Position numbers and translations under genes: made by a program. A stretch of DNA of 64,000 bases from Klebsiella phage LPKP23: the sequence record PV112478.1. One strand, given 5' to 3'. Below are positions 41,126 through 43,345 of the stretch, piece after piece (within the stretch, counting starts at the first letter, position 1; each line of letters begins with the position of its first letter). The notes beneath the pieces were generated by a model, which was not told where the DNA came from, did no database searches, and saw only the letters and a list, made by a program, of their open reading frames with translations.

Positions 41126-43345
41126 TTAGTCTTGACGACGCAGAGCCAGTACAAAGCTATCGGATTTAGCATCCTGATAATCTTTGCGGACTTCTAACCA
41201 GCTGTTATCGGCGAACCAGATATAGTTCAGGCACGCGATATCGCTACCGGCATTAAAGTTCATGGCTTTCAGCGCGTTATGCAGTTTAGGTGAGGTTTCT
41301 TGGGACACGAAGAAGATTTCACCCGGCTGAGCATCAGCACTGATTCTCAGTTTCAGGTCGTTAACCAGCATCGGGGCGATAACCATATTGATACGTTTTA
41401 CCACATAGATGGTACGCGCATCAGTGGTTTCGTTGACACCGGCACCGATAATCCCTGAACCCAATTTAAACATCTGGAAGTTAGCCAGGTGGAACGAGAA
41501 CGCGCCAGCCAGTTTCTTCGCAAACTCAGCGCCACGTGCTTTAGTGACGTCATCCGCCAACGTCGCCAGATCTTCAAAGTTTTCAATGCGCAGACCGCAA
41601 CCCATTTCCAGACGGAAGATTGAGTTCACCAGTTCGACGATATGACGTTTCGCAGCCACTACCAGCGCAACAGGAACGCGGTCGATGACACGCTTCAGGT
41701 TATCGTGGATATCCTGAATATAGCTCAGTTCAATATTGTCATTGAAGTTGAGGCCCGTCATCTCCAGTTGACGCAGCGTGAACCGTGCTTCTTCCGGCGT
41801 AGCGCAAGTGTAAATCGGCTCGTAGGATTCCGCGGCGGTTTGGAACGCATTGAAGTTGGTGTGCAGGTGACCGTTCTGATCGTTGGTCATTTCTTCGGTA
41901 CGAGACATTTCCTGCATACGGATATGACCCAGACCGAACCCCTTCACCGTTTCATCTGAACGGAGAATATTCTCGAACGAGATTGTTCCCGCGTTCGGGG
42001 CTTCAGGAACCACCTTCTGTTCTTCCGGCGGCAGTGCGCTGTTTTCTTCCTTGATACTGGCAACCACGGCTTCGTACTCCTGACGGTCCTGGTCACGAAG
42101 TTCGCGGTTAGCTTTCACGTTAAAACGTGGGCCGGCGATCGCTTTACGGATCTCGGCGTTTTTCGGGTGATAACGATTATCGGCTTCTTTTGCGCCGATG
42201 ACGTTCAGTTCGTGAATTTTACGATCCACTTCTTTTACCTCTTCAGCGGTTAACGGTTCAAACGCCATGTAACGATAACCGTCACTGGTGATGTCCCATA
42301 CAGGGCGAACAGAGTCCACTTCCCATGCGATTGGGCGGTGGTTATTCGCTTCGTTCGGATGGAGCGGGATAGACATGACCACTTCGTAATCGTCTAATTT
42401 GATCAGACCCGATTCAATGTCTTCACGGGTAATAGGACGATTCGCTAAGCGGTTACCTTTTGATGAGTAACCCGGTGCAGGTTCAGCCGGCGCGGCTTTC
42501 TTTTTACTGAATGAAGCGGGGCGAGTGACTTCATGCGGTTCTACTCGCTCGTACGCCGGCGCGGCGTTCGCAGTGCGTGGGTCTGGCATTTCGAAATCGT
42601 CACGTTCGTCACGATTCACTTCATTCCCGTTTGCTTGTTCGCGCATACGGGCGGTGGCGACATACGGGTTAACACGACGGCGATTGTTACGGGCAGCATT
42701 AATATCTACCGCAGGTTCCCGACGAGAGTCGGCACGACCACGAGTAGGGATAGCGCTTTCGTAACGACCTGGACGAGAACCGAAACCACCGGAACTCCGT
42801 CCACGATCATCACGATCTTCGTAACGACCTCTGCGTTCATCACGACCACGGCCTTCATAACGCCCACGACGCTCTTCTTCGCGTCCACGCCCGAAGCCGC
42901 CACTGCTACGACCAAAACCACCACGACGGTCGTCGCGTCCACGGTCACCAAAGCGACGACCACGATCAGCTTCTTCCGCATACTCTTCCAGTGCACGACG
43001 CAGTTTATTAGCATTGTCAGCCAAAAACAGCATGTCGTCTTCTGTACGGCGATCGGGGATATCGACACTACGGTCTTCTTTGATCAGTGCCCCGGCAAAG
43101 AATGAGGCGAGTTCAATTGCTCCTTCCCAAAGGTCATCTGGTTCTTTACGGAGGTCAACTAACATTTCCATGGAGTCGAAAACGAAGTTGATTAAGTTTT
43201 CACGGGTCTGACGACTGCGACGAATCGCATCGTCAAGGTATTCGAAGAACGGATCGTCACGGGACAGTTCGCTGATGCGTTCATCCAGGAAAGCAGCCAG
43301 GTTGCGATCGTTAAAATCCATCTCATTACGACGACGGTTATACAT
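41126..43345 (-). CDS. hypothetical protein (739 aa) with Arg/Gly (RGG/RGR)-rich disordered segment
   Basis: ORF with an AGGAG RBS. A low-complexity region of ~105 aa (RGRDDRRGGFGRSSGGFGRGREEERRGRYEGRGRDERRGRYEDRDDRGRSSGGFGSRPGRYES) lies at ~42673-42988. Confidence 0.75.
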   Translation of the reverse strand: MYNRRRNEMDFNDRNLAAFLDERISELSRDDPFFEYLDDAIRRSRQTRENLINFVFDSMEMLVDLRKEPDDLWEGAIELASFFAGALIKEDRSVDIPDRRTEDDMLFLADNANKLRRALEEYAEEADRGRRFGDRGRDDRRGGFGRSSGGFGRGREEERRGRYEGRGRDERRGRYEDRDDRGRSSGGFGSRPGRYESAIPTRGRADSRREPAVDINAARNNRRRVNPYVATARMREQANGNEVNRDERDDFEMPDPRTANAAPAYERVEPHEVTRPASFSKKKAAPAEPAPGYSSKGNRLANRPITREDIESGLIKLDDYEVVMSIPLHPNEANNHRPIAWEVDSVRPVWDITSDGYRYMAFEPLTAEEVKEVDRKIHELNVIGAKEADNRYHPKNAEIRKAIAGPRFNVKANRELRDQDRQEYEAVVASIKEENSALPPEEQKVVPEAPNAGTISFENILRSDETVKGFGLGHIRMQEMSRTEEMTNDQNGHLHTNFNAFQTAAESYEPIYTCATPEEARFTLRQLEMTGLNFNDNIELSYIQDIHDNLKRVIDRVPVALVVAAKRHIVELVNSIFRLEMGCGLRIENFEDLATLADDVTKARGAEFAKKLAGAFSFHLANFQMFKLGSGIIGAGVNETTDARTIYVVKRINMVIAPMLVNDLKLRISADAQPGEIFFVSQETSPKLHNALKAMNFNAGSDIACLNYIWFADNSWLEVRKDYQDAKSDSFVLALRRQD

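Follow-up and report, generated by a model that had tools for sequence, protein, structure and literature searches.

What is a eukaryote-like arginine/glycine-rich (RG) tract doing in the middle of a phage protein? The question is raised by Klebsiella phage LPKP23 (sequence record PV112478.1), in a 64,000-nucleotide stretch of DNA that was analysed as a whole (the window), where an earlier note written from the sequence alone had drawn attention to such a tract in a 739-aa product. We find that this protein is a divergent new member of the very recently described JADA family, and that the tract is, on the predicted structure, the first two-thirds of JADA's disordered linker. The gene and the parts of its product are as follows.

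41126..43345, minus strand: complete coding sequence of the JADA ortholog, equivalent of phiKZ gp124 and Pa36 gp316; 739 aa plus stop, ATG start, from the list of open reading frames (ORFs)
42971..43345, minus strand: N-terminal helical domain, aa 1-125; net charge -13, isoelectric point (pI) 4.45, all helical in the AlphaFold2 (AF2) model
42719..42970, minus strand: RG-rich mixed-charge core of the linker, aa 126-209, delimited by composition, motif counts and a predicted local distance difference test score (pLDDT) of 26-30
42446..42718, minus strand: second, less biased part of the predicted disordered linker, aa 210-300, from a pLDDT below 50 to aa 290 and from alignments
42527..42586, minus strand: conserved motif P-D-P-R-x-A-N-x-x-P-A-Y-E-R-V-E-P-x-x-V, aa 254-273, inside the predicted disordered linker
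41129..42445, minus strand: C-terminal JADA domain, aa 301-739; acidic, net charge -17, assigned from the AF2 model, Foldseek and hhalign

A divergent member of the JADA family

Scans of the 739-aa protein against Pfam and PHROGs returned no family, and a single-sequence phmmer search against the PDB gave noise only; the match to JADA needed a profile. With a profile of six homologs, hmmsearch matched PDB chain 9rp3_A, 'Gp316/JADA' (E 1.4e-5), and hhalign to phiKZ gp124 returned a probability of 93.7%. Alignment of the C-domains (22 sequences against 4 of the phiKZ type) gave 99.4% (E 5.5e-21, 329 columns). An AF2 model of aa 291-739, computed for the C-domain alone from a 26-sequence alignment, reached a mean pLDDT of 85.8 and a predicted template modelling (TM) score of 0.80. 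Searched against the PDB with Foldseek, this model retrieved 9rp3_A (E 2.1e-13) and 9rp3_B (E 6.6e-13) with probability 1.00 and TM scores of 0.55/0.61 over ~435 aligned columns, the next PDB match having an E value of 0.36. The same C-domain fold was found in 22 uncharacterised jumbo-phage proteins in BFVD, from phages of Erwinia, Ralstonia, Vibrio, Aeromonas and Klebsiella.

The tract had been said to be flanked by ordered domains, and disorder prediction had been proposed as a check; the models agree with the proposal on both counts. A first AF2 run on the full-length protein with a 6-sequence alignment modelled the C-domain poorly (mean pLDDT 49.8) and was used only for the N-domain and the disorder. 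It predicts a confident helical bundle at aa 10-125 (pLDDT ~77-87), falls to ~26-30 over the RG part and does not rise to 50 until past aa 290. In Pa36 JADA, the N-domain spans residues 1-170, the linker 171-269 and the C-domain 270-721 (PMC12931631); the linker is long, disordered and without density in cryo-electron microscopy (PMC12931631). The LPKP23 protein has the same succession, with a folded aa 10-125, pLDDT below 50 over aa 130-290 and a confident C-domain. The models show a three-part layout of an acidic helical N-domain, a disordered linker and an acidic C-domain with the predicted 9RP3 fold. Net charge runs from -13 through +11 to -17 across the three parts, and the overall pI is 5.5. 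The conserved motif in the second half of the linker persists as PAYERVEP-like strings in FBKp24, 2050HW and homologs P0002-P0013, down to ~30% overall identity, and proteins of the PCH45/SPLA10 type have 'P.T.QQI.R' aligned at its position. The motif may serve for docking, or may extend the C-domain on its N-terminal side.

The gene context points to the same family. The JADA gene is reported to lie invariantly directly downstream of the gene for a subunit of the non-virion RNA polymerase (nvRNAP; PMC12931631), and in LPKP23 it follows such a gene on the same strand after a 42-nt gap.

43388..45004, minus strand: ortholog of phiKZ gp123, nvRNAP subunit, upstream of JADA

The product of this upstream gene is 28% identical to phiKZ gp123 (BLASTP, E 2e-65) and matches phrog_2943 'polymerase' (E 1.7e-155). 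The order gp123-type gene then JADA is common to FBKp24, 2050HW, Totoro, PCH45, SPLA10, PhiEaH1, phiKZ and 201phi2-1; in the genomes inspected, JADA comes after a ~540-aa 'polymerase' gene, near the capsid and portal genes. Syntenic homologs found with tblastn include those of Klebsiella phages FBKp24 and Centimanus (68%), of Serratia phages 2050HW, Moabite and Totoro (28-31%), of PCH45 (21%) and of Salmonella phage SPLA10 (22%), with Erwinia phage PhiEaH1 reached from PCH45. Every named homolog is a jumbo phage protein. On sequence and model evidence, membership of the JADA family is firm as regards C-domain, gene context and predicted architecture.

The gene is 99.2% identical to its counterpart in Klebsiella phage KpLz-2_45, of the genus Siatvirus, which the ICTV, the international committee for virus taxonomy, moved into Chimalliviridae in 2025. 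Because of this identity LPKP23 can be assigned by sequence to that nucleus-forming family, as the earlier note had supposed when it spoke of a nucleus-forming jumbo phage. The window also holds a PhiKZ-type major capsid gene (Pfam PhiKZ_MCP, E 2e-218).

JADA (Pa36 gp316, ortholog of phiKZ gp124) is essential, early, abundant and specific to Chimalliviridae (PMC12931631). Its C-domain forms a homodimer of novel fold (PDB 9RP3), with a positively charged cavity into which AlphaFold 3 docks DNA; on its own the Pa36 C-domain is toxic, and it activates the Avs5 Sir2 defence (PMC12931631). The protein forms foci at the early-infection (EPI) vesicles (PMC12931631). Homodimerisation, early expression, essentiality, EPI localisation and Avs5 activation have been established experimentally, for Pa36 and phiKZ alone. 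When phiKZ124 is knocked down by antisense, phage transcription is strongly perturbed at 30 min (PMC12571901), and the molecular function of JADA is still to be established (PMC12931631; PMC13282480). Two further observations come from PMC11849849: Churi gp199, an ortholog of phiKZ gp124, was seen in early-infection proteomics, and binding of phiKZ gp124 to host DnaX/FtsZ is stated there at second hand and is not used as evidence here.

The tract is genuine coding sequence under selection

Low-complexity DNA of this kind could be a recent slippage expansion, a misassembly, or the by-product of a true gene in one of the Thr/Val-rich frames that overlap it. Such an artefact or mis-annotation would find some support in a weak 18-nt tandem periodicity within the tract and in the long shadow ORFs.

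42817..42868, no strand assigned: weak tandem periodicity in the RG tract, 18 nt (6 aa, 'RRGRYE'-like), 2.9 copies, 76% matches (Tandem Repeats Finder)
42533..43105, plus strand: Thr-rich antisense shadow ORF of 190 aa, a by-product of CGT/GGT-rich coding and not a gene
42706..43068, minus strand: Val-rich shadow ORF of 120 aa, in another frame on the same strand as the JADA gene; neither antisense nor a gene

The earlier note had described both shadow ORFs as antisense, which holds for the Thr-rich one; the Val-rich one lies on the gene's own strand. The gene has the identical length of 2220 nt, with 98.9-99.4% identity and zero indels, across nine independently assembled Klebsiella jumbo-phage genomes, so the assembly error against which the note had advised a check did not materialise. 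In comparisons with four near-identical genomes, codon position 3 takes 12-22 of the 14-25 substitutions, and the protein is altered by only 2-3; against KpLz_1_41, position 3 accounts for 22 of the 25 substitutions in the gene, and of the nine differences that fall in codons 120-224, all but one are synonymous third-position changes. These alignments show the marks of purifying selection on the RG tract. The substitution pattern favours the 739-aa frame only, in answer to the note's concern that the true product might be antisense: what is position 3 in the JADA frame serves as position 1 in the antisense one, and the ORF at 42533..43105 is for this reason not conserved.

Usage of Arg and Gly codons in the tract is similar to that in the remainder of the gene. 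The RGRYE/GRY motif is also found in the closer homologs P0002-P0006 and FBKp24, and homologs at 20-30% identity hold equivalent tracts. Composition and position are kept in all 24 non-Pseudomonas representatives compared below, whereas the earlier note had named recent slippage without conservation in homologs as an outcome that would undo it. From the length identity, the position-3 substitutions, the ordinary codon usage and the weakness of the periodicity, slippage, assembly error and a wrong frame are therefore rejected. With the tracts of the distant homologs added, slippage expansion, assembly error and a shadow-ORF gene are ruled out, and the chance that the tract is an artefact of any of these kinds is practically negligible.

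An arginine-only mixed-charge stretch

The segment first reported, 42673-42988, corresponds exactly to codons 120-224. As had been claimed, its 105 aa consist largely of R, G, D, E, S, F and Y (84%), with 31 R, 20 G, 12 E, 10 D, 7 S, 4 F and 4 Y. The core at aa 126-209 (ADRGRRFGDRGRDDRRGGFGRSSGGFGRGREEERRGRYEGRGRDERRGRYEDRDDRGRSSGGFGSRPGRYESAIPTRGRADSRR) is still more biased: 92% of its residues belong to these seven kinds (27 R, 20 G, 9 D, 7 E, 7 S, 4 F and 3 Y), it has 0 K and a net charge of +11, and its Shannon entropy is 2.8 bits as compared with 4.05 for the whole protein. Over every open stretch of 150 aa or more in the six frames of the window, the best 60-aa R+G fraction is 0.63 for the tract and 0.37 for the runner-up. 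The composition of the tract is far beyond chance for the window.

The repeats had been described as RGR, RGG and GGFG. RGR (8 copies) and GGFG (3 copies) are present as stated, and RG occurs 9 times; RGG is not repeated, its single copy being at aa 141. Within aa 126-209 there are 9 RG and 12 GR dipeptides. RG/RGG motif definitions reportedly go back to Thandapani et al. in 2013, where an RGG box is said to need two or more RGG tripeptides with 0-4 residues between them. The tract is not a strict RGG box, because RGG occurs once, and the likeness to RGG boxes drawn earlier does not hold in this strict sense for a stretch so mixed with Asp and Glu. A tri-RG arrangement, RG-X(0-4)-RG-X(0-4)-RG in a disordered region, is found with RG at aa 160, 166 and 172 (RGRYEGRGRDERRG). 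The tract also has the properties of arginine-enriched mixed-charge domains: over aa 112-197, the charged fraction is 0.52, the net charge per residue +0.08, R:K 25:1 and the charge-patterning z -0.44 against shuffles. With ~19% Asp/Glu, it is therefore a polyampholyte and not a polycation. We describe it as an RG/RGR plus Asp/Glu mixed-charge stretch, not a classical RGG box.

The linker across the family

Searched exhaustively with a profile, 1.84 billion cluster representatives gave 25 matches, ~22 of them full-length family members; two word-indexed homolog searches each gave 5-6 close relatives, and the wider family was reached by the exhaustive search. Linkers were compared in 24 non-phiKZ-type proteins, representatives of 50%-identity clusters, and the counts that follow refer to this set. 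In all 24, the 80-aa window richest in R+G starts at residue 107-155, directly after the N-domain. These windows contain 17-37 R, 0-3 K and 9-31 D+E, with a net charge of +2 to +14. The ratio of R to K is 643:26 inside the linker segments, which were chosen by their R content, versus 1265:741 outside them (Fisher p 3.5e-76). The charged-residue fraction of the segments is 0.36-0.77 and their net charge per residue +0.03 to +0.16. The charge pattern is likewise the same in 24/24: the N-domain carries -5 to -16, the linker +2 to +14 and the C-domain -9 to -23, so that the linker is the sole basic element. These sequence comparisons show the linker of the non-Pseudomonas branch to be an arginine-only (R:K ~25:1), Gly/Asp/Glu/Ser-rich, strongly charged, slightly net-positive polyampholyte, predicted to start at ~107-159.

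The phiKZ-type proteins and a Xanthomonas phage have linkers of other kinds.

L007:8877-11042: phiKZ gp124, linker Q/G/P/M-rich with ~2 R
L012:2471-4561: 201phi2-1 gp204, linker Q/N/S-rich
L013:2604-4667: Xanthomonas phage RTH11, linker G/N-rich with some R and W

The linker is of low complexity in every clade compared, and its chemistry is clade-specific. That the linker is arginine-only and conserved in one branch and replaced by other kinds in other clades is an incremental finding, undescribed in the literature consulted; the main text of PMC12931631 does not describe the composition of the linker, which appears there as 'predicted disordered linker' only. That text names neither Klebsiella nor Serratia, does not speak of low complexity, and brings up arginine solely in another connection.

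Comparison with known systems

The LPKP23 protein resembles Pa36/phiKZ JADA in its predicted C-terminal fold, length (739 vs 721 aa), layout, gp123-type upstream gene and family, Chimalliviridae. It differs from the phiKZ-type proteins in a C-domain identity of only ~12-16%, in the lack of detectable sequence similarity between the N-domains, and in the linker, where 27 R, 20 G, 16 D/E and 0 K in 84 aa stand against the Q/G/P/M-rich linker of phiKZ with its ~2 R.

Outside phages, the likeness to eukaryotic RGG/RG domains (FUS, hnRNP U, FMRP, nucleolin) lies in the predicted disorder, the Arg/Gly richness, the interspersed aromatics (GGFG, GRY), the tri-RG arrangement at aa 160-173 and the use of arginine to the exclusion of lysine. 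Unlike those domains, the tract has one RGG and ~19% Asp/Glu and belongs to a bacterial-virus protein. Another parallel is offered by the arginine-enriched mixed-charge domains, reportedly set out by Greig et al. (Mol Cell 2020) for the RD/RE-rich tracts of U1-70K and nuclear-speckle proteins. As there, charged residues are frequent (a fraction of 0.36-0.77 over the family), R and D/E are interleaved, R greatly outnumbers K and the net charge is slightly positive; the more distant homologs, such as P0024 with 'RDDRDRDRGRRDDRRDDRDRGRRDD', have the appearance of textbook RD repeats. There is no evolutionary relationship to the U1-70K-type domains, and the JADA tract differs from them in lying inside its protein, where it joins two acidic folded domains.

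Within the Chimalliviridae, ChmC (PhiPA3 gp61 / phiKZ gp67) is a phage-nucleus-associated RNA-binding protein whose disordered tail is needed for RNA-dependent condensates in vitro (bioRxiv 10.1101/2023.09.22.559000). Like JADA it is a chimallivirus protein that combines a folded oligomeric nucleic-acid-binding domain (predicted in the case of JADA) with a low-complexity disordered region. Unlike JADA it is a Whirly-fold tetramer with a C-terminal N/G-rich plus S/D/E tail. Homology to ChmC was rejected, fold, size and gene all being different, and ChmC serves as a mechanistic precedent only.

What the arginine-rich linker may do

Taken as a whole, we lean slightly towards the explanation that the RG tract is a clade-specific inter-domain linker of JADA with proposed nucleic-acid contacts. 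The mechanism within it we put forward more tentatively, with somewhat more doubt than belief: the arginine tracts on the dimer would give multivalent, low-specificity nucleic-acid contacts, possibly with reversible masking by the acidic domains. Since the protein is acidic everywhere but in its basic linker, a JADA dimer would present two flexible multivalent arginine tracts. These could make low-specificity contact with early phage transcripts or DNA at the EPI vesicle, adding avidity to the predicted nucleic-acid binding of the C-domain dimer and favouring local clustering. A form of autoinhibition is also conceivable, with the tract of the free protein folded back onto its acidic N- and C-domains. 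RNA or DNA binding and condensate formation by the tract are plausible from its composition, and by analogy the ChmC precedent, in which the disordered tail of a chimallivirus protein forms RNA condensates, may be taken to support multivalent tracts and local clustering.

Several observations weigh against this explanation. The contrast in R:K is partly circular, because the segments were selected by arginine content and the difference is to that extent built in. Charge mixing is about random or even in 21/24 linkers (z -2.6 to +0.8 vs shuffles), and well-mixed charges would therefore favour a chain that is expanded and soluble rather than one that strongly self-coacervates. The tract has a single true RGG. 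Because the linkers of phiKZ, 201phi2-1 and RTH11 contain little or no arginine, an arginine-dependent activity can be neither a universal function of the linker nor, on these sequences, its ancestral essential one. The N-domains, finally, align with a probability of just 2.3% (hhalign, 22 R-type against 4 phiKZ-type sequences, with no solved N-domain structure for a fold comparison); because no similarity to the phiKZ-type N-domain is detectable, the N-terminal half may have diverged in function.

These considerations bring forward a plainer possibility, that the linker is a passive spacer, a flexible soluble tether whose composition reflects lineage-specific drift under selection for disorder and solubility. 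A disordered linker of ~100-170 aa is always there while its chemistry differs radically by clade (R/G/D/E/S, Q/G/P/M, Q/N/S, G/N); the charges are well mixed, as expected of an expanded polyampholyte; and the codons CGT, GGT, GAT and AGT, for R, G, D and S, are single-step mutational neighbours in a sequence with a weak 18-nt periodicity. A mere spacer, however, should accept lysine, which is nearly excluded (26 K vs 643 R) in 24 lineages less than 50% identical to one another. Nor would it be expected to be net-positive between two acidic domains in 24/24 proteins, or to change in close relatives almost exclusively by synonymous substitutions. We regard the spacer as rather unlikely. At the other extreme, a linker of any flavour would make the JADA dimer multivalent and nucleate a phase-separated hub at the EPI vesicle or nascent nucleus, concentrating RNA polymerase and transcripts. 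All of the linker flavours seen would be of kinds known to promote condensation, the LPKP23 tract holds 27 R and 7 aromatic residues, and the N/G-rich tail of ChmC gives a precedent in Chimalliviridae. JADA also dimerises through its C-domain and forms foci at EPI vesicles (PMC12931631), but binding to a localised partner can give foci as well. The well-mixed charges speak against strong self-association, and aromatics number 0-1 per 80-aa window in P0015-P0017 and P0024-P0026; a linker acting chiefly as a driver of condensation seems to us improbable.

The neighbourhood, in which the major capsid protein, gp122-like, gp123-like and JADA genes are met by a convergent portal gene, might suggest a packaged, protamine-like protein whose arginine tract neutralises DNA inside the capsid. 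Yet in phiKZ, FBKp24, 2050HW and MJ359 the ortholog is labelled 'hypothetical', next to genes labelled 'virion structural protein', phiKZ gp124/JADA is expressed early and is cytoplasmic or associated with the EPI vesicle, and the whole protein is acidic (pI 5.5). A packaged role was rejected on these grounds of expression, location, charge and annotation, and is very improbable.

Expression signals and other features of the window

43355..43359, minus strand: Shine-Dalgarno AGGAG, 9 nt before the JADA ATG, within the 42-nt gap after the nvRNAP gene
41052..41115, minus strand: intrinsic terminator, two hairpins (the first a perfect 16 bp, the second 8 bp) and T9, separating the convergent JADA and portal genes
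38256..41054, plus strand: ortholog of phiKZ gp129, convergent downstream neighbour (BLASTP E 5e-70; phrog_3004 E 5.8e-183)

The terminator is a strong one and ends the unit of the co-oriented nvRNAP and JADA genes. Its RNA folds with -47.6 kcal/mol (z = -8.3 vs shuffles), and the T-run overlaps the portal ORF at its stop codon, the ORF ending at 41054. Predicted sigma-70 promoter sites were scarcer around the JADA gene than in shuffled sequence, and the scan placed none beside it. We take phiKZ gp129 to be the portal; the record annotation says 'virion structural protein' only. The C-terminal ~78 aa of the 932-aa portal-like protein (~40818-41051, plus strand) form an acidic Gly/Asp/Asn/Glu-rich low-complexity tail (…GGGWDNDSSGNDWDNNDSGGGDAFGGGDFGSFEDTEEDPFATDELEGGGETSTEEEADPFATPEETNGPE), in which a DPFAT motif is duplicated and which has no alignment to phiKZ gp129.

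Between the major capsid and nvRNAP genes, in the position of phiKZ gp122, a 332-aa ORF (45028-46026, minus strand) has no Pfam match and a weak PHROG match; knock-down of phiKZ122 is listed together with that of 124 among the strong effects on phage transcription (PMC12571901). A 747-aa ORF at 26011-28254 (minus strand) matches 23 PHROG tail-fibre/virion families, many of them through short repeats at aa 310-460, which suggests a modular repeat-containing tail-fibre protein like the branched fibres of the FBKp24 type. At the left edge of the window, a truncated protein (1-2908, plus strand) matches phrog_3201, tail fibre / SLT transglycosylase domain; a Gly/Arg/Leu-rich stretch before its listed ATG (GSGGRRGGLLRRTGNVLKKVGKGALGVAGFLGRGLFSGVG) has the second-highest R+G content in the window.

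Implications for JADA and nucleus-forming phages

JADA matters as an essential and abundant protein that is among the earliest made by nucleus-forming jumbo phages, and as the trigger of the Avs5 defence (PMC12931631; PMC13282480). The proteins of the Klebsiella, Serratia, Erwinia and Salmonella type are now placed firmly in its family. The finding overturns nothing, and should their linker turn out to be a spacer only, the tract would be low-complexity sequence of an ordinary kind linking the domains of a known protein. At its most ambitious, the idea would be that interchangeable linker flavours, arginine mixed-charge in the enterobacterial and related clades and Q/N- or G/N-rich in those of Pseudomonas and Xanthomonas, all build a condensate-like, nucleic-acid-rich hub at the EPI vesicle, coupling early transcription to transcript handling before the nucleus forms. 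We think this unlikely; if true, the arginine linker would be a prokaryotic-virus counterpart of the eukaryotic RG/mixed-charge speckle domains, and the hub would explain why JADA is essential. A net-basic arginine linker between two acidic domains provides a cheap hypothesis, that of linker-mediated nucleic-acid binding, clustering or autoinhibition, and the clade-specific linkers are natural linker-swap variants that offer a concrete handle on JADA function.

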